A stretch of DNA of 39,045 nucleotides from Catajapyx aquilonaris (GCA_000934665.2 KZ538949.1:1-39045); one strand, 5' to 3'; counted from the first letter of the stretch, positions 4,886 through 38,736 are shown. The notes: a model not told the origin generated them from the sequence alone. A program made the numbers and translations.

Positions 4886-5525
4886 GAGACAGTCCCCGTC
4901 TTACAGTACGTACCTCCGCCACGTATTACAGTATAGATTCAGACTTAGGTATGCCTATTTTTTAAAATTCTATATGCGGAAACAAATTCCACGAAACTCC
5001 AAATGCCGGCTATTGCGGAAACACGCGTTTTTCTGCTCGTGGCAACACTAACCAGCCCGCTCCACGTACGAGATTCTCGCATACGAGGAGCCGCGAGGAG
5101 CCAACTGCCCATGCCCAGATACGAGGAAAGGAGGAAAAAGTTGAAAATTTTCAACTTTTTCCCCTTTCCTAGTATCTAGGCATGCGCAGTTGGCTCCTCG
5201 CGGCTCCTCGTATGTGAGAATCTCGTACGTGGATACCAGCCTTTATTTCCTTACTCACAAGTTTGTCAGTTTACACGTGACAGAATAGACAGACATTTGC
5301 GACCCCGCTTCTGGCCCTCGCGGGGAACACATTCCCGTTCGCAATTGCCTCAACTGAGTACTACGACAGTGACTCCAATAGAGATATACTCAAGGATGTA
5401 TACTGTACACGTACAGTACGAGTACAGTGCAGTATAATGTGTAATAAAAAAACAGGTTTCGAGTTACGCAAAATCGACTTGCGTGTAATGTTAAGGAACG
5501 ATCCACGTAAGTGGGGGACTGCCTC
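4886..5525. mobile_element. Tigger/pogo-like non-autonomous DNA element, TA TSD
   Basis: Left end TA-GAGACAGTCCCCGTCTTAC and right end GTAAGTGGGGGACTGCCTC-TA form an imperfect TIR of ~19 bp. Confidence 0.5.
5061..5233. repeat. 173-bp imperfect palindrome (hairpin-type MITE) nested in the 4886-5525 element
   Basis: TCCACGTACGAGATTCTC...GAGAATCTCGTACGTGGA, centred on GTTGAAAA|TTTTCAAC, with a few mismatches and a small indel. Confidence 0.85.
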
Positions 5526-6028: not shown

Positions 6029-6538
6029 CAAGGGGGTAATCACTTCGGTACTCCGGTGTACACCTGGGAGTGGTACTCCCTGGTACTCCTCAGGCACCTC
6101 ACTCTTTATTACTCCGTGGTAAGGGGAGACTGAGTGGCGCCGCGGTAACGTGCGCGCCCACGGATGTTAAGGTCCCGGGTTCGATCCCAGCCCGGGGACA
6201 CCCCCTTCATCTCGTGCAGAGTTTAGGGCCATCTCTGACTTCGTCTAGGGTGGTATTTCCTATAGACTAAACCACCCAGGGGAGCTCACAAAATGACCAC
6301 ATATGTCATTGCACTGCACTTGCACATCCCCTCCTGTCATCCTCCCTATCGCTCGCGGTACCCGGGCGTTACGGCAAAAGGACCAACTGTATCAAGCTTG
6401 TACAAATTTAAGCATAAATAAAGGTACTGTGCCGATGCCCTAGGGCGGTGCACTAAGCCCCAATTATTTATTACTCCGTGGTACTCCTTGAATTTGGTAC
6501 TCCAGTGTACACTTTTCAGTCGAGTGATTACCCCCTTG
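6029..6538. mobile_element. MITE with 16-bp TIR CAAGGGGGTAATCACT and 8-bp TSD (hAT/P-type), interrupted by a SINE
   Basis: TSD GCTGCTGT at 6021-6028 and 6539-6546, internal GGTACTCC repeats, and an uninterrupted relative at 37189-37350. Confidence 0.88.
6122..6466 (+). mobile_element. tRNA-derived SINE, family A, copy 1
   Basis: A-box TGGCGCCGCGG, B-box GGTTCGATCCC, and 17-bp TSD TTTATTACTCCGTGGTA (6105-6121 / 6467-6483). Confidence 0.9.
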
Positions 6539-8084: not shown

Positions 8085-8168
8085 AATTGAAGGGCTCCAT
8101 GGAAGAAGGGGGTAACTAGATGGGAATTCCCATCTAGTTACCCCCTTCTTCCATGGAGCCCTTCAATT
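8085..8168. repeat. 84-bp perfect spacerless palindrome with MITE-like termini
   Basis: AATTGAAGGGCTCCATGG...GGGAA|TTCCC...CCATGGAGCCCTTCAATT. Confidence 0.92.
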
Positions 8169-9519: not shown

Positions 9520-9836
9520 TGCATTACCCCATTGGGAGTTACATTTCCTTTAGGGGGGTGGAATACCACCATTTGGGTGGAACCGGTATACTAAGATAGT
9601 ATTTAGTGTGTTCCAAGGGTAGGTAGGAGGGGATGTGCAAAGTGCGTGTGCAATGTCGTTGATGTGCCGTTTTGTGAACTCCCCCGGGTGGCATATGTGG
9701 AAGGATCGCCACCCGAAACGAAGCCAGAGACGGTCTCACTCTGCGCGAGATGAAGGGGGGAACCCCGGGTTGGGATCGAACCCGGGACCTTAACATCCGC
9801 GGGCGCATACGTTACCGCAGCGCCACTTCGCCTCCC
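9447..9836 (-). mobile_element. tRNA-derived SINE, family A, copy 2, with (TA)n tail
   Basis: Head and body are homologous to the 6122 copy. TSD CAACTAACTTATAT (9433-9446 / 9837-9850). Confidence 0.88.
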
Positions 9837-10249
9837 CAACTAACTTATATTACACTTGACGAAGACGGTGGTACTGAATCCTCTTAATTGAGTTTACGAA
9901 ACAGAAGCCTCTTTGTGCATTGGAAATCGTTCGCGTAAAGCGGAATTCCAAGTAAGTCTTACATATTTAATCAATCTAAGTTTTCAAGGAAACTGAAAAC
10001 GTATAAGGTGAACAATTTCCATTTTGCTCTCAATTAAAAAATTACACAATAAAACAATTCTGAAAACAATATAAGCTTAAGTTTCATAAATGACGAAAAG
10101 AGACATACAATTTTGTAAAGTGTGCTTGCAGCCTGTCACTCAGTTAGTTTCATCCCGTTGGTAAAGCTTATTTCAGTTGTAATACAGCAGTAGAGTAGAT
10201 AAAATGTACCGACGCGACGTATTCGACTTAAGAGTAATATAAATTTATA

Positions 10250-10796: not shown

Positions 10797-10863
10797 TATT
10801 ATCATGTGATGGAGTGAAAAGAAGTTGATGGATTCTCTCCGTATTTGAGTGAGTTTTGAGTGA

Positions 10864-11069
10864 GCAAAGTGCATGTGCAATGTCTCTAACGGTCATTTTG
10901 TGAGCTCCCCCGGGTGACTTAGTCTGTCGGAAATTGCCACCCGAAATGAAGCCAGAGATGGCCCAACTCTGCCCGGATAAAGGTGGGAACCCCGAGTGGG
11001 GATCGAACCCGGGACCTTAATATCCGTGGGCGCGAGCGTTACGGTACCGCTGCGCCACTTCACCTCCCC
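10864..11069 (-). mobile_element. tRNA-derived SINE, family A, copy 3 (3'-truncated)
   Basis: GGGGAGGTGAAGTGGCGCAGCGGTA...GGTTCGATCCC head. The body matches 9637-9836. Confidence 0.88.

Positions 11070-11143
<74 letters not shown>
11070..11143. repeat. (AAT)n microsatellite
   Basis: Read directly. It is the source of the poly-I/N/Y ORFs in the track. Confidence 0.95.
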
Positions 11144-11939: not shown

Positions 11940-12695
11940 TTAGAAAGCCTTAAGGCCATAGGCGCCGGCGAAGGCGGGGGCGTATCCGCCATAGTGAGCT
12001 CCGTATCCACCATAGTGAGCTCCGTATCCGTAAGCGGGGGCAGCGAAGGCTGGGGCATGGGCCACGGCCGGAACAATAGCCTTGGCCACGGGAGCCACGG
12101 CCACAGCAGAAGGATGGCGCACGAACGAGCTATGGCTGTATCCGGTCACGAGGGGAGCCTTGGCGACAACGGGAGCATGGGCGACGGCGACTGGGGCATG
12201 GGCAACTGCGACAGGGGCAGCATGGGCGACAGCTACGGGAGCATGGTGCACAAGAGGGGCGGCATGGTGCACGAGAGGGGCGGCATGGGCGACAGCTACG
12301 GGAGCATGGTGCACAAGAGGGGCAGCATGGGCGACAGCAATTGGAGCAGCGTGGTAAGCGGCCACTGGAGCACCAATGTATCCAGGGGCGCCAAGGTATC
12401 CAGCAGAGGCAACGGCCACCAGGGCAGCGAGGATCACCTGTACAACGGGAGAATTGCAAACGCCAACCGCATTGCTGGCAACAACCCCTAGTTTCACAAC
12501 AGAAAGTCCCCCACTCCCTAGTGACGCGACTCAGTCAATGCCCTTTGCTGGGAATCGAACCCAGATCCACTACTAAGGTAAGCAGTGTGTTCTGCCATTA
12601 AACTACAAAGGCGCGTGGGATGAGTATGCTGTCACAACTGAACCCTAAGTCCGTACCCCCCAACCTCCTTCCCTGCCACTCACCAGCTTGTACAT
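11940..12695 (-). CDS. Low-complexity Ala/Pro/Val/His-rich cuticular protein (no R&R domain), 169 aa; exons 12695-12684 and 12437-11940
   Basis: ATG TAC AAG CTG|GTGAGT, then a 246-nt intron ending tacag|GTG ATC CTC. Signal peptide [24 protein letters not shown] repeats, GYG-rich C-terminus, TAA at 11942-11940. TATA and AATAAA are at the expected positions. Confidence 0.93.
12540..12612 (-). ncRNA. Intronic tRNA-like cloverleaf homologous to 36308-36378
   Basis: The minus strand reads GCCTTTG TA GTTT AATGGCA GAAC A CACTGCT TACCTT AGTAGTG GAT CTGGG TTCGATT CCCAG CAAAGGG C. This gives a 6-bp acceptor stem, a D-stem, a 7-bp anticodon stem and a T-arm identical to the other copy. Confidence 0.7.
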
Positions 12696-17938: not shown

Positions 17939-18018
17939 CGTACAATATTTAATTAATATCGGTATTAGTCGTGATGAATTCATCACGACTAATACCGATA
18001 TTAATGAAATATTGTACG
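17939..18018. repeat. 80-bp spacerless palindrome, one mismatch
   Basis: CGTACAATATTT...GTGATGAA|TTCATCAC...AAATATTGTACG. Confidence 0.92.
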
Positions 18019-21767: not shown

Positions 21768-21828
21768 GCTTACCATCCACGACACGCTATTTTTCCAGTC
21801 TTTAGGAAAACCTAACCTCATCATCATC

Positions 21829-23053
21829 ATGTACAAGCTGGTGAGTCACTTCTTGGTTAGAAGGGTTGCTTGGTGTGCAGGATAACGCTCAGGTTTTGGG
21901 AAAAGTGTAGCCTATAGCATACCTGTTTTTTATTCAAGAGCTTGGGTGTTTGTTCATAAGGGTTTTGATTAGATGGATAGTTCATTATCGTAATTAAATG
22001 AACACAAAAGATTTTATGCATCCAGTCGCCTTGGCGGAAGGGTTCATTTATAAAGCAAGCATTGGGTAGGATCCACAGAGTGGGGAATCAAATCAAATCA
22101 ACAAACAAATGTAGGCGCTGGCGCGCTTCAAAGGGGATCGCCTCATGTTGCACAATTATGGCACCTTTTAATTAGAGTATCGTTTGACACAGTGCCAATT
22201 CAATGGAATTCTTTCCACGCGGAGGCATTCCACTCACGAGTGTTAATGTAAATGCCACTTTCCCAATGAATAGAGTGAATACATAGAGGTGAATGTTAGG
22301 TAAGGGTACATCCAGGCGTTTTGAATTTTTATATTAAAAACTGTTTATTCCACGCTGAAATTCTTATTCTGTTGAAAAGCAGAGCAGTTTCTAAATCGGC
22401 AGGCGGATTGTCAAGTTTTTAAAAGTACTGTAAGGGTCTTACCATGATCCCATTAGCATTTATGAGCCATTTCTGGAGAGGTAAAAGCGGTGCCATACAC
22501 AAAAATTGTCACAAACTAGAAAAAGTCATATTTTGGCACATTTTGCGCCACTGATTCACTCGATTCACTGAAACATATTAGATATGTGGACCTAGGAGGA
22601 ATACATTATCAAAAATCTCTTTTCAAGGTGGTCTTCGCTGCCCTGATTGCTGTGGCTGCTGCCCGCCCTGGATTCTTGGGCACAGCAGTCCATCATGCCC
22701 CTGTTGTCCACGCTGCCCCTGTTGTCCACGCTGCCCCTGTTGTTCATGCCGCCCCTGTGGCTGTGTCGCACGCCCACACTCATCACATCGCCCGCACTGC
22801 CCATGTTGTCCATGCTGCCCCAGCTGTGGTCCATCATGCCCCTGTGGTCCATCATGCCCCTGTGGTTCATCATGCCCCTGCTGTTGTTCACGCTGCTGCC
22901 CCTGCAGTTGTGACCCACCATAGTACTTCTGCCTTTGTTCATCATGCCCCAGCTGTGGCTGCTGTCCACCACGTCGCCCCCGTCGTCACCGGGGTCCACC
23001 ACTATGCCGCACCTCTCCATCATGGTCATCATGGTTTCGCCAAGGTTCACTAA
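21829..23053 (+). CDS. His-rich low-complexity cuticular protein, 145 aa; exons 21829-21840 and 22628-23053
   Basis: ATG TAC AAG CTG|GTGAGT, then a 787-nt intron ending ttttcaag|GTG GTC TTC. Signal peptide MYKLVVFAALIAVAAA, (V)HHAPVV/HAAPVV repeats, 31 His by hand count. TATAAA at 21730 and AATAAA at 23115. Confidence 0.93.
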
Positions 23054-25053: not shown

Positions 25054-25407
25054 GAGGGAGACGGAGTGGCGCTGCGGTAACGTATGCGCCCACGGATGCT
25101 AAGGTCCCGGGTTCGATCCCAGCCCGGGGACACCCCCTTCATCTCGTGCAGAGTTCGGGGTCATTTCTGGCTTCGTCTCGGGTGGTATTTCCAATAGACT
25201 AAACCACCCGGGGGAGTTCACAAAATGACCACAGCTACGACATTGCACTGCACCTTGCACATCCCCTCCTGTCATCCTGCCCGTGGGCCCGGGCTTTCAT
25301 TAAATAGGCACCATGTACTTAACAACTTAAAATACAATAAAGGTCCATGCTATATACCCCGGAAGGGGTGAAAGCATTACCCACATATTATATTATTATT
25401 ATTATAT
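25054..25407 (+). mobile_element. tRNA-derived SINE, family A, copy 4, with (TAT)n tail
   Basis: A and B boxes present, body close to the 6122 copy, 13-bp TSD TATTACTGATGTA (25041-25053 / 25408-25420). Confidence 0.9.
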
Positions 25408-26582: not shown

Positions 26583-26680
26583 ATGTACTATGGGCGCCAA
26601 AAGAATTGACCGGAGTTGATGGGTATATGGCGCTATATACCCATCAACACCGGTCAATTCTTTTGGCGCCCATAGTACAT
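26583..26680. repeat. 98-bp palindrome, two mismatches
   Basis: ATGTACTATGGGCGCCAAAAGAATTGACCGG...GC|GC...CCGGTCAATTCTTTTGGCGCCCATAGTACAT. Confidence 0.92.
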
Positions 26681-29600: not shown

Positions 29601-30424
29601 TTGGATAACATGGATCATAAGCAGCTGCCAAAATTTCTAGGGTATATAAAGGACATCTAGTTTTTTTGTGTGTGGGGGCATGAGAGATGGTGGGTATAAT
29701 ATTGAACGTTCATAATTAATGAAGGGCTCTTCACACAGGCGGACGCCACCTTCTCTTCGTGGCATAATGGAACGAGTTAACACTTTCTAGAACTCCTGTA
29801 AATCACTCCAATTTCTCTAGTAAATTCTGGGTCATGTGTACGATAGGGTGGTGCTCATTCGTTCCTTTTATAGGCATAGATTTTTTTTAAGGCCCTCACG
29901 ATGTGTGCTATAAAATCGATTTGACGACACTATTATAGCGCATGTACCGTGGGAATTGTGCCACTGGGCATGTAACTCGTTATAGGGTGTGATTCAAACT
30001 ATCTTCCGTCTAGAAAATTGCACTCGAATGATGTATAATGTAACGAGACGCTTAAAATCACTCCCGTTCTATATCTACTTTCCATAATAAATTTCCTAAG
30101 AGGCTTAAGTGTTCGAATTTTTATTCACGCCCTAGTCAGTATGAAAAGTTAAGCTATATCAACTTTTTTTAAATACAGGTAGGCCTATAATGGAAAAATC
30201 TCCAGAGTAAAAAAAATTAGAATATAAACTTACCGGCGCGGCGAGAAGTGTAGTTTCTGGTTCAGAAGGGCTAGAAATACCACGTTATTCGAGAAAATTT
30301 ATTCTAATTTGGTTTGATGCAGAAAATATCAATCACTAATTAAATTCAAGGAGTGCTAGGAGCAGAGTTATGAAATTAATCCAGATGAGCGGGAAGATAT
30401 TTCACACAAATTGAGGCATGAATA

Positions 30425-30654
30425 CAGGGTGTTCCAAGTTTGCGGGTCACTTTTCTTATCTCTAATATTGCCTGAAGTGTTTATTTTTTGTAGCTTGTTG
30501 TGCTTCTAATCAGTTGCCCCATTACTCCCAGGCGGTCGAATATAGCATTTGCTATAGGGCAACTGATAAAAAGGGGCACAACAAGCTACCAAAAATAACC
30601 ACTTCTGGCAATATTAGTGATAAGAATACTGACCCGCGAACTTGGAACACCCTG
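30425..30654. mobile_element. Tc1/mariner-type MITE (CAGGGTGTTCCAAGTT termini, TA TSD)
   Basis: Imperfect TIRs of ~95 bp around a short spacer, with TA on both sides. Confidence 0.88.
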
Positions 30655-33600
30655 TATATACACTGCCTGGATTCGTCGTTTATTAAGTATTAAAATTAAT
30701 TACGTGATACAATGAGGAAGTTTATCTTGGCATAGGCCTACTGGGCTGGTATGATTTCTGGGTCTCGTGAAAATAAAAACCAAGATATACCTGATGATAT
30801 ACTGTATTTCAAAAGGTCCGTCATTCCAGGAAAGTGTATGTTAACCATATTACTTTTCAAGGGCAATAGGCCTAAAGTGGGTTAACAAAACAGTCCATGT
30901 ACAACATACTACGTATAAGTAATAAGTTGCACAAAAATATCCTGAAATGTATCTCATTATAATTATATACACTAGTACAGCTCTAAATGCTTGTTCATAA
31001 GCATTCAATAATTGAATTGCTATTAGTCATGTGACGAGAGTATACTTGGGTCACCTCAATAACTTTCATTTTATCTGACTCAGCTTTAAGAGGTAATTAT
31101 TGTATCCTATTTCCGACTGATTTAAAGGTGAGTAACATTCATCCTCTCACCACCAACTCTCTATGTCAAAACGCTACCTAAGACTATAAACGTGAATACT
31201 CTTGGACCCCAATTTTTCTAGTAGGCTACAATCACTATACATCCTTAGTAGTTTTCATAATTACGTTTTCATAATGTCATCATTCAACGTTAAGTTAATC
31301 CTGTAAGCATTTTAACCTACACCTCACAGTGCATAAGCTTCCTGTATAAGGAGACGTGAAAACAAATCTCCTTGAGTAGACTATACGCTACAGTTGCACG
31401 TCTCATTTACAGGTCGTATGTCAGTCACACACATATTTATGCACATCACTTTGAATGGCACTCTAAATTGCGACAATGATCAAAGTGAGTCCAATGGTCC
31501 TGTACACTAATGATCCAACTCGATTCCCAAATAATTCTGTCGTGATGGATGAGACCGACCGAAAAGCTGACAGGCGACATATTCCCCGTTTCATACTCCT
31601 GAAAATACCATTTCAGCTACCAACAGACGAGATTGCATTACGTGGAAGCCGTAGCAGAGGAAGTGACACAGGTAATCCAACAGGAGCATTGTGCCCTGTT
31701 TTGTATAAGTCCTACATATTGCTTTGTCACATTTTATGAAAGCAATTTGTGCGGCAGATAAGCCTCTCGGCACCGTATAAGTTCTAGTTTACATCATTCT
31801 CGGCAGTTTATAGTAAGCTACAAGTAGCATTAAAACGGGATTTCTTTACCTGCAAATTTTACTTACATAGTGCTTACAAGATGCGCAGTTTCCTTACATT
31901 ACAATTATTGTGGATGGATATAAAAAGTACTGAAAATTACTAACTTATTTCAGTTAGACAATATCCTAGATTACTTTATATTATATTTTTCAGATAATTA
32001 TATCGTCAGTTTTGTTTATCAAATATGTTTATTGAAATACCTTACATGATATAGGCACACTCATTAAGGTGGAGATTTTATGTGCGTCCCAATTAAGAAA
32101 TGAGTATTTCGCAAGCGTTCGATGTGAAAGGGAGATACGAATATCATGTTTTGTCGAATCATTGCAAATTACGAAATTAATATGATGTCAACTGGCAACA
32201 TAATACCGTTACGTTAATCAATTTTGGTCATACCATGCTAGGTAAATGAAACGTTAATCTCAATTCCATCGGATCAAACTCTATCATCCCCACCGGTAAA
32301 ATAACAATTACTGTTAGTATAGAATGATATCACATTAGGCTTAACGATTAGCATATTTTTAATCAGGGTACCAAGTTGCATGTAATCATGTTATTCCTCA
32401 TTATAATAGTCACGGTTTACGACCACCAGTATGTTTGCTATTTATGGGACAATTAAATATTTAGCTGTGATTTAAATTTTGAGCCTGAGCAGTTCGATAA
32501 AACAATTTTCGCATAAATATTTGTATTTATGATATGTCGAATCCATTCGACTCAAATGGATAAATCAGTTAGCTACTAAGGTTATAAAAAGCAGATTGTA
32601 ACTGTGCAAAACTCAAAGCAGCATCACGAAGGCAATTCTGTTGAAAAGCAATTACAAGTGTTTCAGACAAAAAATAGGCATTTTCTCTCTCGTAAGTGAT
32701 GTGTAATCACTCTGTAATCCCAAAGTAACTGACAACTCAAAATTGAGGGCATGATTTTGAACTCGTTCTTCACAAAGCTTCCACGCCCTTGCATACTTTC
32801 AGAAATATCACACCAGACTCGTTCCACGTCCAGATATAATCTGTGTTAATTGGTGAAAACAATCCGCAAAAACTTTTACATCCCAAAAAAACCTGGCAAA
32901 AACTCCTCTAAAAAAATGGTCCAAAGCCAACCGCCCCAGCAAATCAAAGACACCTGTAAGTCTGAATTGGTCCATTGGGGATAATGGCGGTTCTTAGGGG
33001 GTAGGAGACGAGGTGGGGTGAAACTGAAACATCCCGGCAGAGCGAAACTGACGACGGAAAAAGCAGGTCACGGCCGAAGGAACGAAGGTAAAGAGGGCTA
33101 CTGACTGGGAAAGTGGCTGGTTCCTTTTGGATGGGCGTGGGCAAGATGACCACTCAACATTTAACCCCTTCGTGATTTCTTTTAAGGATTGGAGGTGGGG
33201 AGGCCAAAGACGTCTATGTTTCAAGGGTACCGCACTGTGCTGTAAAAAAAATAGGCCTTGATTTTTTTTCCCCCAACTAATTGTTCCGGACACATTAGGT
33301 ACCATTCATATTTTGGTTGGAAAAATGGTTACGTGCCAGACACAGTTAATAATATCCTAATACATAAAACATGCCCTTCTTTTTTTCATAATCCTTGACT
33401 ATATCGACCTGAATGAAACAAGAGAAGGGACGTGAGAGGACTTTTTCGGAACAAAAATAATGCACACCTTCTAAAGGTCGTGTGTAACAACCTAGGCTCG
33501 GATGGAACGCGATAAATTTCAAAAAAAAAAAAAGCCTCGGCCCCCATGAACACTTGCAAAAATTCCAATGTCCAAATAGCATTAAGTTACTTTCACTCCA

Positions 33601-36152
33601 AAGTACTGGCCATTTTTCGCCCCCTTCCCATTCAGGACCAAGTAAACATTACCACAACGCAAGCCTCTTTAAAGTCACGATTTTCCTTCACCAGGGTTGG
33701 AAGAAACTTTTTTACCTTTTGACCCCCCCGTGACCCGGCTCATCACCATCAAAGAACCAACCGTCCATTATACATAATACAGCAGTGCAAGGTAGAGAAA
33801 AAAAAAAATCTTATCCTACCACGTCGGTTCGTGCTGACGGTCCATTAGTGACTTGAGGGCTTGAAAAATGACCGACTTGGCGGTTTGATTTATCTCATAG
33901 ATGACACACGAACGTTCTTGCTCTCACGGACACTCCATAAAGATGTTTGAGGGGTGACCTGTTGGCCACTTCTAATTGCTAGCCTTAGTCCGGCACCGCC
34001 CTGCCTACAATTAAACCGGACTTTCTAACAGATTAGGATACTCCTTGAAGATTGACGGGAGGAGCTTATGTTGCAAACCGGCTTGCAGTGTGTCACATTC
34101 TATCGATTACATTTTAACACCCAGACAAGAATTTATCTGAGTTATAGTGGACACAGTTTGTTCTAGTTTATAGTTTGCAGTAGTCTATAAGGTATTGCGC
34201 TAAAATCGCGCATTATTGTTTCGACATAAGTGCTGAGAAAATATATTTGCTGACTGCAATATATTCCTGGGAGTCGCAAACAAATATTATGCGTTACATA
34301 CTGAAAGTTTCGCCAATTAATGACATTGTTGAATATTACGCAAATCAGCTGCAATTATTTATAAATTTGTTTTATATTGGAGTAACTGCTGTCAGATTAT
34401 AGCTCATATTCGACGTACAAGCATGTAGTATTAAATAATTGATCTAAAAATATATCATGCAGTGAGAAAGTAATGCTCAATCAATGTTGCTGTCTATGAT
34501 GGCAGGCAATCTAAGACTAAGCTTACGTCAAGAGGTGGCTCAATTTATGAGACAATGAATAATCAGAGCAAGCCTATCACGGAGGTAAACCTACGCCATT
34601 TCTTGTGCAGGACAAAGATAGTATGAGGATAGAACATAATCACGTGGAAGATCTGGTTCAACTTGGTCAGGAAAGGTTTGAGCACTGGCAATGATCCTAG
34701 TCAAATGAGGTTGCTCCCCAAGGGGTCCAGGGGGTGATACCAACATTTTCATGCCATTATACTGCCACTCCCATATACTGATTCTGTGAGATATGGCTGC
34801 ACATAGAGTTGATTTTGTTACACATCACTGCGTAATTCACAAATGAGCAATAGGGTATATTTAACATGGTAATATCAATAACCCTTAAAGGGTTAATATG
34901 GCTGAATTACTTTTCCCAACTTTACCCCTAGTAACGGTTGATGAGTTTGGAAATAATTGGGATAGGGTTAGGTTAGCTAGGTTATGTTACTCACGTATTT
35001 ACTCACTCTAGTTAGGTAGTGGTACTGAGAAAGAGAGGATCAGTTTTGCAATAGTACATGTATACCATATTCTAAAGGCATTTCATTTTAAACATGAAAT
35101 TTTTTTGCTCTTTCCAAGATTGCAATGCCTGCAAAAAATTCTGAACTAATTTCGCAATGGAATTAATGATGATTTTATGTCGCGCGTCACTAGAAGCCCT
35201 TTCCTCGCCCACTTATTTATATTTCAGTGCAGCAGCGGTGTGTGCCCAGACCGCAATAATTTATTTATGGGATTTTTTATCGCTTTTTAAGCATCACCCA
35301 TGGTGCAGCAATGGGAGTGTCTAAACGAAAGTTGACCTTTATGAAGTTGGAAACTCTCCATACTGGCACATTCAGTCTATAAATTAGCATAGTCTAATGA
35401 CAGGTGTAACATATGAAGGTCTAGCTATTCTGCACTGTACAAAAAAATCTCAAAAAAATTTGACACCATCACTTCCTCAGTGATGTCATACTAAAAACCT
35501 TAACCCCCCCCCCCCCGCCCCCCCGCTTCGAATGAAAAATTACAGAGGGTAAGAAACGTGCTGAGATCCCTACCTCATTAAGAACCCATACAATGCCAAT
35601 GAGTCATACCTACACATTTATACATCGCCTCCGCCAAAAAGGGAAGTTTTCCCTGGAATAACCAGAAACTACAAAATATGCCAGTTAACCATGAACTCTG
35701 TAACCTCTTCCCCTATAGAGTCGTGCGTTTGCGGCCCACCTCAAACTTGGCAATTATATCGAACTTGGAATACACATTGTGTGCAGGCAGGAGGGGAGGG
35801 GGTGCATTGAATGTGTGTGTGTCAGATTAGCTCTCCCGCTAAGAAAGTAAAAGTACACAAGTGGAAAGGTGAAGGAATCATTTTGCCTGAGGACATGGGT
35901 CGGATGGATAAGCCCCCTCCAGGTACAGTAGAAAAAGGCGGGGAGAGAGAACACTACTCTCTCCCCCCTATACCCACCATCCCCAACTCCGGTCACTACC
36001 AGAATAATTTGTCTCGGAAAAGTTTTTGGTGCCGATATCGAGGCCACCTTCCCCCGCGGCTTCCGAAAAAGAAAGTGCGTGTGCCCCGGTCATGGCTTCC
36101 TATTACGTCAGGCCATTTTCCTCCGGATGGCTTCTAAGGGAGGCGTCAACCA

Positions 36153-36160
36153 TATAAAAA
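36153..36160 (+). promoter_or_regulatory. TATA box of cuticle gene 3
   Basis: TATAAAAA begins 87 nt upstream of the ATG at 36240. Confidence 0.6.
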
Positions 36161-36239
36161 GACCATACTGAACATGTGAGCACCACACTCTCTTCACAGC
36201 CTTTTGAGAAGTTTGATCAGCTCTCCAATCGACATCAAC

Positions 36240-36983
36240 ATGTACAAGCTCGTAAGTTATCCGTGGGTAGCAGCGGGTTGGCCGGTTGTGTGGACATGCG
36301 GTCTCAAGCCGCGGTAGTTCAGTGGCAGAACACACACTCAAGCAGTGTGGAACCTGGGTTCGATTCCCAGCTGTGGCCGGCCGGCATGTACCAAGTGGAA
36401 GTGTGACATTGGACGTAGCCGGTAAGACCTGCATATCAAGGCTCTCCGGCTGCGTCCAATCAGTGGCAACTTCAGGCATCATTTGAGACATTTATTGCTG
36501 CTAAATGACGTTTATCCACAGGCAATCTTCCTCGCGGTGGTGTCCGTGGCCTACGCTGGAGCTCCCCTGGCCGCCCCAGTGGGATACGCCGCCCCTTATG
36601 CCGCCCATTACGCCGCCCCTTACGCTGCACCTTATGCCGCATACGGTGCCGCATACGGTGCCGCATATGCTCCATATGCAGCACACGCCGTTGCTGCCCC
36701 AGTAGCCTATGCTGCACCAGTGGCCAAGGTTGCTGCTCCAGTCCTGGCTGCCCCAGCTTACCACGCATATGCCGCCCCAGCAGTGGCTAAGATTGCCGCT
36801 CCAGCATTCACCTATGCCGCACCCGTGGCCAAGGTAGCTGCCCCTGTTGCCGTCGCCCATGCTGCTCCTCTGGCTTATGCTGCACCAGTGGCTAAGGTTG
36901 CTGGTCCCGCCTACGGTTACGGCCTTGGCTATGGCGCCCATTATGGTGCCCACCACTATGGCGCCTATGGTGCCTTTTTGTAA
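36240..36983 (+). CDS. Ala/Tyr-rich (YAAP, AAPVAKV) low-complexity cuticular protein, 157 aa; exons 36240-36251 and 36522-36983
   Basis: ATG TAC AAG CTC|GTAAGT, then a 270-nt intron ending ccacag|GCA ATC TTC. Signal peptide MYKLAIFLAVVSVAYA, YAAP/AAPVAKV repeats, GYGLGYG C-terminus. TATAAA at 36153. Confidence 0.93.
36308..36378 (+). ncRNA. Intronic tRNA-like cloverleaf (tRNA-Gly-like scaffold, non-canonical anticodon loop TCAAGCA)
   Basis: Acceptor GCCGCGG/CTGTGGC, T8A9, D-stem GTTC/GAAC, anticodon stem CACAC/GTGTG with a 7-nt loop, 4-nt variable loop, T-arm CTGGG-TTCGATT-CCCAG. All four stems pair fully, allowing G-U. Confidence 0.75.
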
Positions 36984-37019
36984 GGAACAGGACCGGTGAT
37001 TATTGTATTACGTATTTGA

Positions 37020-37025
37020 ATTAAA
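37020..37025 (+). terminator. Candidate variant polyA signal ATTAAA of cuticle gene 3
   Basis: About 37 nt past the stop, with GT-rich sequence downstream. Confidence 0.45.
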
Positions 37026-37188
37026 AGAGATCATTTGTAAAAAAAAAGTCAATTGTGGTATTATTTACGACATTGCGTTGTTGTTTCCCTTGTTTCATGA
37101 GATTCCAAAAATATGTGTCAAATAGCAGCATTGTTTCGATTTCAATTGTTTACCGCAAAAATAGTCAACATGCCAGGCGTACGAGGTC

Positions 37189-37350
37189 CAAGGGGTTAAC
37201 CACTTCAGTACTCCTGTGTACACCTGCAGTGGTACTCCCAGGTACTCCTTTACTACTTAGGTACATTACTCTTTGGTACTCCTTGGTAGGCCCTACTCCT
37301 TGAATTTGGTACTCCAGTGTACACTTTAAAGTCGAGTGGTTAACCCCTTG
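37189..37350. mobile_element. Uninterrupted copy of the CAAGGGG-TIR MITE family (162 bp)
   Basis: TIR CAAGGGGTTAACCACT/AGTGGTTAACCCCTTG, internal GGTACTCC repeats shared with 6029-6538, and a degraded 8-bp TSD ACGAGGTC/CGTAGGTC. Confidence 0.85.
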
Positions 37351-38667
37351 CGTAGGTCACTTCTAGATTGTTACCTTCATTGGTGACGTGTGCAAATGAT
37401 TCCATTCATCACTGGGATATGACACTTTTTACATAGTGAGAAGCTTCGTTGCATAATTTGCCGGGCGAAATTGAGACCACAATGCCGATTGACCATTGAG
37501 AGTGTGGAAAAAGCATTTCCGAATCATTCAAAATTATTGTGCGAATTGATAATTATAATATTAATGCTTCGATAGAGATCATGAACTAAATGATTACCTC
37601 ACATCTTTGAAATGTGCCTTTTTTTTAACGAGCGCTATGACCGTATGGGCTGAGTTGTCAATAGTTCTCTAAGTCTCATGCACAAAGCTATAGGCCTATA
37701 CTGTATTATTATACACTATAGAGATAGACTTTTTCCCGGCTTTTTCCACTTATGACAGATTTAACGTTACATAATCACAAACATTTTCGTATAGGCCTAC
37801 TACTTTTTTGCATGATTATTAATCACGGCTAATCTCTTGCCGTGAGTCATGAATAATTGTTTTCTATTGGTTGATGCTTAGGTGATTTCACAACACTGCA
37901 ATAATGGGCATGAACAAAAAAAAGTTCATTATGATGCCTCAATTTCTTTTTATTCCTCAGGGACAATCTAGTCTTGGAGCTACAATAATGAATGCCTGCA
38001 AAATAAATCTAGGCTACGATTATTTCAATGTAACATATTTCCATCAATTTTATATCGCAGCTGATTCCGAATATGGAACACAAGGGCAATAAAATTCCGC
38101 CGATCATTCTCGTCACATATGGTTCTGCACTACATTATGCGTCAGTAATGGATGCCATTAAACTTAATTTGCTGACAAATTGATGTCCGACTGCCCATTA
38201 CTAATCGACTGTTGTGCTGCATCACGATTGTGACTTTCAAGGCGATGCTTGTGCACCAACGTCGGCACCAGCAATGCAGAGCCATATAGTGTTGAACGTG
38301 TGTAAAATTCCGACAGATGGGAGTCTCTGGGCTTCTTATAGGGTCTTACAGTTGGATGACACTTTTCTAGCATGATTCACTGTTATGGACTGTTTGGGTA
38401 GCTCCTGGCAGGGAGTACGTATATTGTCAAAGAACTTCAGAATTGGTTCATACAAAATAATGTGGATCCGAGTTTATAAAGTGCATGAGAAACTGCACAC
38501 TAAGCATAGTGTTACATAATAATGTGACAAGGTTTAGGGTGAACTCTTGGGGACCAGAGGCGTCATTTAGTTTCCGAATCGAGGCAATGGGCTTCAAACG
38601 TAATATATCCACTATAATTTGAATTTTCACAGCAGCTCCCAATTTTCAGACTTGCATAATATGCAAA

Positions 38668-38736
38668 TTAATTAAATTAATGAAAGTTTTAGTGAACTAT
38701 ATTATAGTTCACTAAAACTTTCATTAATTTAATTAA
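38668..38736. repeat. 69-bp AT-rich perfect palindrome with 1-nt spacer
   Basis: TTAATTAAATTAATGAAAGTTTTAGTGAACTATA-T-TATAGTTCACTAAAACTTTCATTAATTTAATTAA. Confidence 0.92.

Follow-up and report, generated by a model that had tools for sequence, protein, structure and literature searches.

The window analysed here, a stretch of Catajapyx aquilonaris DNA (KZ538949.1:1-39045; 39,045 bases, eukaryotic, 40% G+C, 17 N), carries two tRNA-like sequences, copy A and copy B, each of which lies in sense orientation in the first intron of a gene with a four-codon first coding exon (MYKL). Both copies have lost the decoding features of a tRNA, while the tRNA body is complete. Our tentative reading, which we hold with less than even confidence, is that a tRNA-derived, non-decoding element may have been kept in these introns, would be made within the pre-mRNA and could have an RNA-level role in the host transcript. 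The two copies are:

36308..36378, plus strand: copy A, tRNA-like cloverleaf of 71 nt (ARAGORN; Rfam tRNA; minimum-energy fold)
12539..12612, minus strand: copy B, tRNA-like, 73-74 nt (ARAGORN, 12540-12612; Rfam tRNA; pair table; fold)

Applied to the whole window, ARAGORN reported exactly two tRNA genes, at 36308-36378 (+) and 12540-12612 (-). The Rfam tRNA model (RF00005, gathering threshold 29 bits) matched the same two places over its full length, with 49.3 bits for copy A (E 9.7e-08, model positions 1-71 of 71) and 39.8 bits for copy B (E 4e-05), and a scan of the window at E <= 10 returned nothing beyond them. By these E-values, chance matches to a tRNA are ruled out. The tRNA likeness is significant because of the covariance-model scores and not because of folding energy, which is unremarkable (z = -1.69 for copy A and -1.97 for copy B; 14 and 7 out of 200 shuffles, respectively, fold as well).

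Copy A proved to be the cloverleaf that the original prediction had placed at 36308-36378. It has 7/4/5/5-bp stems in which 21 of 21 pairs can form, a variable region of 4 nt and the anticodon loop T-C-AAG-C-A, and the minimum-energy fold of the element taken alone is the cloverleaf. In the standard register, positions 33 and 37 are both C, again as predicted. ARAGORN uses a different register with the anticodon CAA at position 32, which gives U33 and G37 at the cost of one A-A stem mismatch and leaves no nucleotide 26. Copy A is a normal decoding tRNA in neither register.

Copy B, the predicted homologue in the intron of gene 1, has intact D and T arms. Its 3' acceptor strand contains one extra G, which forms a bulge or, in the other register, leaves a 6-bp stem; apart from this bulged G, all of its stem pairs can form as in copy A. 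The anticodon arm measures 20 nt and can be drawn either with 7 bp and a 6-nt loop or with 5 bp and a 10-nt loop. The nucleotides U8, A14, G18 and G19 and the T-loop are present in both copies, and the tertiary pair 15:48 is G:C in copy A and A:T in copy B. Measured against a decoding tRNA (7-nt anticodon loop, U33, purine at position 37), both copies fail. The claim that the cloverleaf is conserved in the paralogue stood in part: copy B matches the full tRNA model, but its acceptor is bulged and its anticodon arm takes up 20 nt.

In our view it is highly improbable that the two copies are working decoding tRNA genes nested in introns, although both pass the Rfam tRNA threshold and ARAGORN, and although the ARAGORN register gives copy A U33-CAA-G37. 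That register comes with the stem mismatch and without nucleotide 26, and the standard one has C33 and C37. Moreover, the Leu anticodon of copy A is combined with a 4-nt variable region, a mismatch to the class II type of tRNA-Leu; copy B would have an 8-10-nt loop or a 4-base anticodon together with its bulged acceptor; and neither copy is followed by a terminator, as described below.

A side observation concerns the acceptor stem, in which copy A has G:U at 4:69 (36311/36376) and at 6:67 and copy B has U-A at both. In some animals, G4:U69 can allow mischarging by alanyl-tRNA synthetase. The idea that copy A is charged with alanine through this pair, in Ala-rich hosts, was dropped, as copy B carries U4-A69.

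Comparison of the two copies revealed a T-arm that is identical in 17 of 17 positions and a D-arm identical in 13 of 15, at a global identity of 74%. Among the 21 stem pairs, five are changed on both strands and still pair (acceptor 4-6 and anticodon-stem 4-5), one is changed on a single side and none is broken. The arm identities, the two-sided changes in acceptor pairs 4-6 and an anticodon arm that differs yet stays paired had all been predicted and were recovered in the sequence and the pair table. What the comparison proves is that each copy goes back to a tRNA-type gene with a proper fold; neither the compensatory changes nor the identical T-arm prove selection inside the introns.

The host genes belong to a set of three in the window with one common layout. 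It consists of a TATA-like motif, a short leader, a 12-base coding micro-exon encoding MYKL, the sequence GT[AG]AGT, a phase-0 intron and a long exon 2, which encodes a hydrophobic N-terminus and then a repetitive protein rich in Ala, Pro, Val, Tyr and His. The parts of the three genes are:

36240..36251, plus strand: gene 2 micro-exon (MYKL), from sequence and motif scan; TATA-like motif near 36153
36252..36521, plus strand: gene 2 first intron, 270 nt; copy A occupies intron positions 57-127
36522..36983, plus strand: gene 2 exon 2, open frame with a signal-peptide-like start and an Ala/Pro/Val/Tyr-rich low-complexity protein
12684..12695, minus strand: gene 1 micro-exon (MYKL), from sequence and motif scan
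12438..12683, minus strand: gene 1 first intron, 246 nt; copy B begins at intron position 72
11940..12437, minus strand: gene 1 exon 2, open frame, Ala/Pro/Val/His-rich low-complexity protein
21829-21840, plus strand: gene 3 MYKL micro-exon (motif scan), followed by the first intron, 21841-22627 (787 nt), and exon 2 to 23053

The first intron of gene 3 is A+T-rich and, with 787 nt, far longer than those of genes 1 and 2. A Pfam search gave no family above threshold for any of the three proteins, and the protein of gene 3 has a sub-threshold match to GEO12453p1-like (18.3 bits vs 32.2). For the gene 2 protein, the nearest protein Atlas cluster is from arthropods and auto-named 'cuticle protein 16.5-like' (score 0.90), which serves as a lead only. 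Judged by composition, gene layout and this one Atlas lead at 0.90, the label of cuticle-protein genes is plausible. The proteins encoded by exon 2 can no longer be aligned between genes 1 and 2 (E = 1.4), and the host genes are therefore old duplicates.

The locus is present in four runs, all of DNA contigs from one sample that may be the source of the window, and in no run recorded as RNA. To count relatives of copy A, we determined the depth of these contigs on 36100-37400 at a likeness of at least 80%. While the single-copy flanks have depths of 29.5, 27.3 and 24.8 in X1, X2 and X3, the bin 36320-36363 in copy A reaches 636.9, 550.4 and 503.3, which is 20-22 fold; at position 36340 the excess is 17-19 fold. 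The core of copy A is thus present at about 17-22 single-copy equivalents, i.e. about 20 relatives per genome, a count that misses copies less than 80% alike (copy B is ~79% alike to copy A over 61 nt). The bins 36232-36275 and 36408-36451 lie exactly at flank depth and leave a common stretch of roughly 36310-36371 (partial bins). Because the rise is confined to copy A and its neighbour bins are single-copy, only a tRNA-sized unit is common to the family. As a positive control, an element of the miniature inverted-repeat transposable element (MITE) type at 37189-37350 gave a depth of 177,708 in X1, about 6000 fold. The family of copy A is not a high-copy short interspersed element (SINE) or a thousand-copy pseudogene family. 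Hundreds to thousands of dispersed copies had been named at the outset as the outcome that would speak against a host-linked element, and the depth came to about 17-22 single-copy equivalents instead.

Other members were sought in several further collections. A pattern specific to the family of copy A had 0 matches in public genome contigs and 0 in viral contigs. A search by way of proteins, using a 127-aa antisense open frame over the element, was abandoned, as no candidate appeared among proteins of 69-223 residues. No contig of the DNA runs joins across the site of copy A as an allele lacking the element would (contig joints), an absence that is no proof. Run X5, which carries the same species label and whose library may or may not be RNA, does not cover the gene and contains two look-alikes of copy A in longer contigs. 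They correspond to 36314-36378 and 36314-36368, in contigs of 1798 nt at depth 113 and of 1172 nt at depth 2298, and MITE-bearing contigs of this run have depths of 5-262. One X5 family member has a T4 run ~24 nt downstream. If X5 were RNA, one family member would lie within an abundant long transcript; no conclusion on expression is drawn from it.

Copy A begins 56 nt and copy B 71 nt past the splice donor, both in sense orientation, in agreement with the predicted distances of ~56 and ~70 nt, and both lie ~125-155 nt downstream of the inferred start of RNA polymerase II (Pol II) transcription. Likeness between the two introns stops at the tRNA borders. The alignment of the elements has a z of 18.5, and the intron sequences beside them resemble each other no better than shuffled sequence does: 68 out of 1000 shuffles score as well upstream and 988 out of 1000 downstream. 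Sequence inspection found neither a CCA nor an A-rich tail at either copy. As a mark of target-site duplication, no adjacent direct repeat of at least 6 nt was found beside A or B, except one 6-mer at -28/+1 beside copy A. The first run of four or more T (T4+) follows 597 nt downstream of copy A and 660 nt downstream of copy B, so both copies are without a terminator for RNA polymerase III (Pol III). The original prediction had listed the same absences, namely of flank similarity, SINE body, target-site duplication and nearby TTTT, and was right on each of them.

The strongest argument for a tie to the host genes is based on position. The first introns of the MYKL genes make up 1303 of the 39,045 bases (3.3%), and both tRNA-model matches of the window lie there, in sense orientation and in the first third of the intron; the chance that two random matches both do so in sense is ~3e-4 (own arithmetic, post hoc). 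For a ~20-copy family, and with contigs of ~256 million letters per run, two independent landings are not credible, and the simplest history would therefore have the element in place before the split between genes 1 and 2. Flanks and exon 2 have diverged beyond recognition, and a neutral relic should have decayed with them. From what the sequences suggest, the tRNA body would have been kept either by selection or by repeated gene conversion from other copies.

An alternative without any host role is that A and B are inert tRNA pseudogenes, dead copies of a small dispersed family that landed in the introns, hitch-hiked with them or were refreshed by gene conversion. About 20 genomic look-alikes with unrelated flanks would be in keeping with such a family, as would the non-canonical anticodon loops, the bulge and oversized arm of copy B and the missing terminator. 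Two insertions at an equivalent position, in the same orientation and in two of three neighbouring paralogues would be very unlikely (~3e-4), however, and an inherited neutral element should decay like its unalignable flanks, whereas the nucleotides of the tertiary contacts are all intact in both copies. Retroposed tRNA copies would also be expected to show the CCA, A-tail or target-site duplication that are missing here. On the other hand, any pair of tRNA-derived sequences would show compensatory differences, the element is missing from one MYKL intron in three, and the genome is rich in tRNA-derived repeats (a ~210-nt tRNA-headed SINE occurs four times in the window). At least one animal commonly has tRNA genes nested in introns, namely Caenorhabditis elegans with 44-47% of its tRNA genes (PMC4999229). 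Taken together, we regard inert pseudogenes as rather unlikely, though with real weight.

A DNA-level function is another alternative, in which the promoter boxes of the element would recruit TFIIIC and Pol III 125-155 bp past the Pol II start and produce an independent tRNA-like RNA or act as a chromatin or boundary element of strongly expressed genes. The T-arm, which would serve as B-box, is identical in A and B (17/17) and agrees with the B-box consensus, and the D-arm, as A-box, is identical in 13 of 15 positions; in addition, the X5 family member mentioned above has its T4 run ~24 nt downstream. At A and B themselves, there is no T4+ terminator for ~600 nt, and a working Pol III gene without a nearby terminator would be most unusual. 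A purely DNA-level role would need no complementarity of the acceptor and anticodon stems, yet the five double-changed pairs all pair, which different source genes could explain. Findings in C. elegans (PMC4999229) can be read both ways: the host promoter affects the expression of intronic tRNAs and pairings of tRNA and host can be conserved, but same-strand intronic tRNAs have a lower Pol III occupancy. We consider this explanation improbable.

The missing Pol III terminator and the sense orientation instead make it most likely that A and B are made within the host pre-mRNA. Several observations weigh against an element kept there by selection. To begin with, the first intron of gene 3 has no match to the Rfam tRNA model when 21780-22700 is scanned alone at E <= 10; gene 3 would either have lost the element, or the element was gained elsewhere after gene 3 had branched away. 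Copy B is imperfect in its acceptor and its oversized anticodon arm. When the introns are folded in full, the cloverleaf is lost from the minimum-energy structures, with the acceptor and D arms engaged in other pairings. The absence of T4 over 597 and 660 nt is not unusual in the G+C-rich local composition, by an estimate rather than a formal test.

A further point against selection came from a control with unrelated tRNAs. We scanned public metagenome contigs for two words common to both copies, one from the D arm (9 nt) and one from the T arm (15 nt), and obtained 22 loci. In 19 of these, ARAGORN calls a tRNA at the matching site (among others His, Gly, Thr and Asn). All 22 differ from A and B in anticodon arm and acceptor stem and, beyond the two words, bear no relation to either copy; a strict A/B pattern had 0 matches in these contigs. 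The identity of the control loci is 64-76% to copy A and 62-75% to copy B, so that the likeness of A and B (74%) is matched by unrelated tRNAs. Common arms and compensatory pairs are therefore expected of any two such tRNA-derived sequences. For the same reason, descent in place is deduced from position alone, and the positional argument is stronger than the argument from covariation. The original prediction had claimed selection on the fold and not on decoding; the loss of decoding features and the intact tRNA body remain in its favour, but its covariation argument does not survive this control.

The differences among the ~20 relatives are listed at 36339-36344, which is the anticodon loop, and at 36349 and 36351. 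In X1, they comprise A>T at 36340 (9 contigs), A>T at 36341 (7), G>T at 36342 (4), C>G at 36343 (4), several one-base indels, and one-base deletions at 36349 (3 contigs) and 36351 (11 contigs). Such loop-centred variation fits a fold that is kept while decoding is free, but variants were listed only away from the ends of short aligned pieces, so that the concentration in the loop partly reflects how differences are reported, and the list gives no measure of how well the family as a whole conserves its D and T arms. The case for a kept intronic element also weakens if the other ~20 copies are scattered outside such introns.

As a mechanism for the proposed intronic element, we suggest the following sequence of events. 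An ancestral cuticle gene of the MYKL type would already have had a tRNA-derived element in its first intron and would have passed it on when it was duplicated. Selection may then have kept the tRNA shape while the remainder of the intron and exon 2 diverged. Each copy would be transcribed together with its host gene, within the pre-mRNA. RNase P and RNase Z recognise a complete tRNA body, and the cloverleaf could be a substrate of the two enzymes, in which case the intron would be cut and a tRNA-sized RNA of ~71-73 nt released. Alternatively or additionally, the folded element may tune the splicing of the four-codon first exon.

Just 3' of copy A begins a long, imperfect hairpin (36392-36485, plus strand), which is found only in the intron of gene 2. 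Folding of 36379-36521 gave -54.8 kcal/mol (z = -4.47), and 0 out of 200 shuffles are as stable; the equivalent stretch of the gene 1 intron shows no unusual structure (z = -0.79). The hairpin region lies at single-copy depth, and an Rfam scan gave no microRNA (miRNA) match there. The arrangement of a tRNA-like unit and an adjoining hairpin recalls tRNA-linked miRNA precursors. In murine gammaherpesvirus 68, such precursors feed a Drosha-independent route to small RNAs.

A bolder version of the idea, which we think improbable, extends it to all ~20 copies. The copies would all reside in first introns of MYKL-type genes, as RNAs that have the shape of a tRNA but do not decode, and would be expressed only when the host genes fire at the moult. 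RNase P and RNase Z would excise them from the pre-mRNA or from the excised intron, and the product could be a tRNA mimic co-expressed with the Ala/Pro/Val-rich cuticle proteins, or the cut could serve as a cleavage or splicing gate on the four-codon first exon. In gene 2, cleavage by RNase Z directly behind copy A would at the same time create a free 5' end on the ~94-nt hairpin, for a small RNA made independently of Drosha.

The window contains further repeats:

6123-6346 (plus), 9625-9843 (minus), 10861-11074 (minus) and 25056-25282 (plus): four copies of a tRNA-derived SINE of ~210 nt, 80-91% alike
37189-37350: MITE-like element with terminal inverted repeats, just downstream of gene 2, with many internal-deletion variants
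5061-5233, 8085-8168, 17939-18018, 26583-26680, 30414-30668 and 38668-38736: six near-perfect palindromes of 69-255 nt, arms 80-100% complementary

In the SINE, a head that resembles a tRNA and includes a T-arm-like box is joined to a body of unrelated sequence, and the copy at 10861-11074 adjoins a long trinucleotide repeat. The SINE was detected neither by ARAGORN nor by the Rfam tRNA model, and its matches to copies A and B are limited to 14-24 nt of the T-arm, which leaves it unrelated to them. Fragments of the MITE flank a SINE copy near 6029-6090 and 6482-6538. All palindromes except 8085-8168 have sub-threshold Rfam matches to assorted miRNA families; the six are probably foldback or MITE-type repeats and not miRNA genes. 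Among the metagenome controls, seven loci (L001, L003, L011, L013, L017, L021 and L022) belong to a repeated tRNA-like unit on several long contigs from two assemblies. ARAGORN calls Asn or Ser in five of the seven and gives no call in L001 and L021, the acceptor strands are near-identical in most, and all continue with A-rich sequence and a long T run. This unit has the look of a eukaryotic repeat of the Pol III type and shares nothing with A and B but the arm words.

Compared with known systems, A and B come closest to intronic tRNA look-alikes. Human nimtRNAs promote splicing and need their cloverleaf to do so (Hoser et al., 2020; PMC7722341). A and B share with them the location in introns of protein-coding genes and a cloverleaf kept despite base changes, while the dependence of a splicing effect on fold and intron position is a feature of nimtRNAs and, for A and B, a proposal. 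nimtRNAs are insertions of mitochondrial DNA, whereas A and B have D and T loops of the cytosolic type, arthropod cuticle-like hosts and a site near the 5' splice site of the first intron; their canonical D and T loops argue for a cytosolic-type origin. The tRNA-like sequence of Arabidopsis GUT15 is also intronic and in sense orientation; it derives from a Pol II transcript, has no autonomous Pol III transcription and inhibits the splicing of the intron in which it lies (Plewka et al., 2018; PMC6152437). GUT15 is a single locus in the final intron of a plant long non-coding RNA (lncRNA) and yields a stable, CCA-bearing RNA, whereas A and B are two copies in protein-coding paralogues, belong to a ~20-copy family and are known from DNA.

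Other systems share fewer features. Like tRNA-derived SINEs, A and B are tRNA-derived and have D and T arms that resemble promoter boxes, but they lack an unrelated body, a tail and a target-site duplication, and their copies number ~20, not thousands. mascRNA and menRNA are tRNA-like RNAs that RNase P and RNase Z cut from MALAT1 and NEAT1. Their cloverleaf-like fold is shared by A and B, which, if present in a Pol II transcript, are predicted to be releasable by the same tRNA-end enzymes; mascRNA is located at the 3' end of an lncRNA, whereas A and B are intronic. Against the mascRNA-menRNA model (RF01684), copy A scored 22.6 bits (threshold 42.5, E = 2.6) and is not a member. Ordinary intronic tRNA genes such as those of C. 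elegans are nested in introns as well (PMC4999229), but they decode, are transcribed by Pol III and have their own terminators, whereas A and B lack both a canonical anticodon loop and a terminator. No report of a tRNA or tRNA-like element in introns of cuticle genes was found in the open-access literature searched. We therefore file A and B as a variant of the intronic tRNA look-alikes, since they pass the tRNA model and fail as decoding tRNAs, as SINEs and, in the case of copy A, as mascRNA.

Intronic tRNA look-alikes that act on their host are known from few cases, namely nimtRNAs and GUT15, with mascRNA and menRNA as examples outside introns. If the other copies of the family turned out to be scattered, A and B would be part of an ordinary small tRNA pseudogene family and of little weight. 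If the reading proposed here is true, the introns of these cuticle-like genes would provide a natural multi-copy system for a tRNA fold within pre-mRNA, in which the fold may control splicing, direct cleavage by RNase P and RNase Z or give rise to a tRNA mimic tied to the moult.

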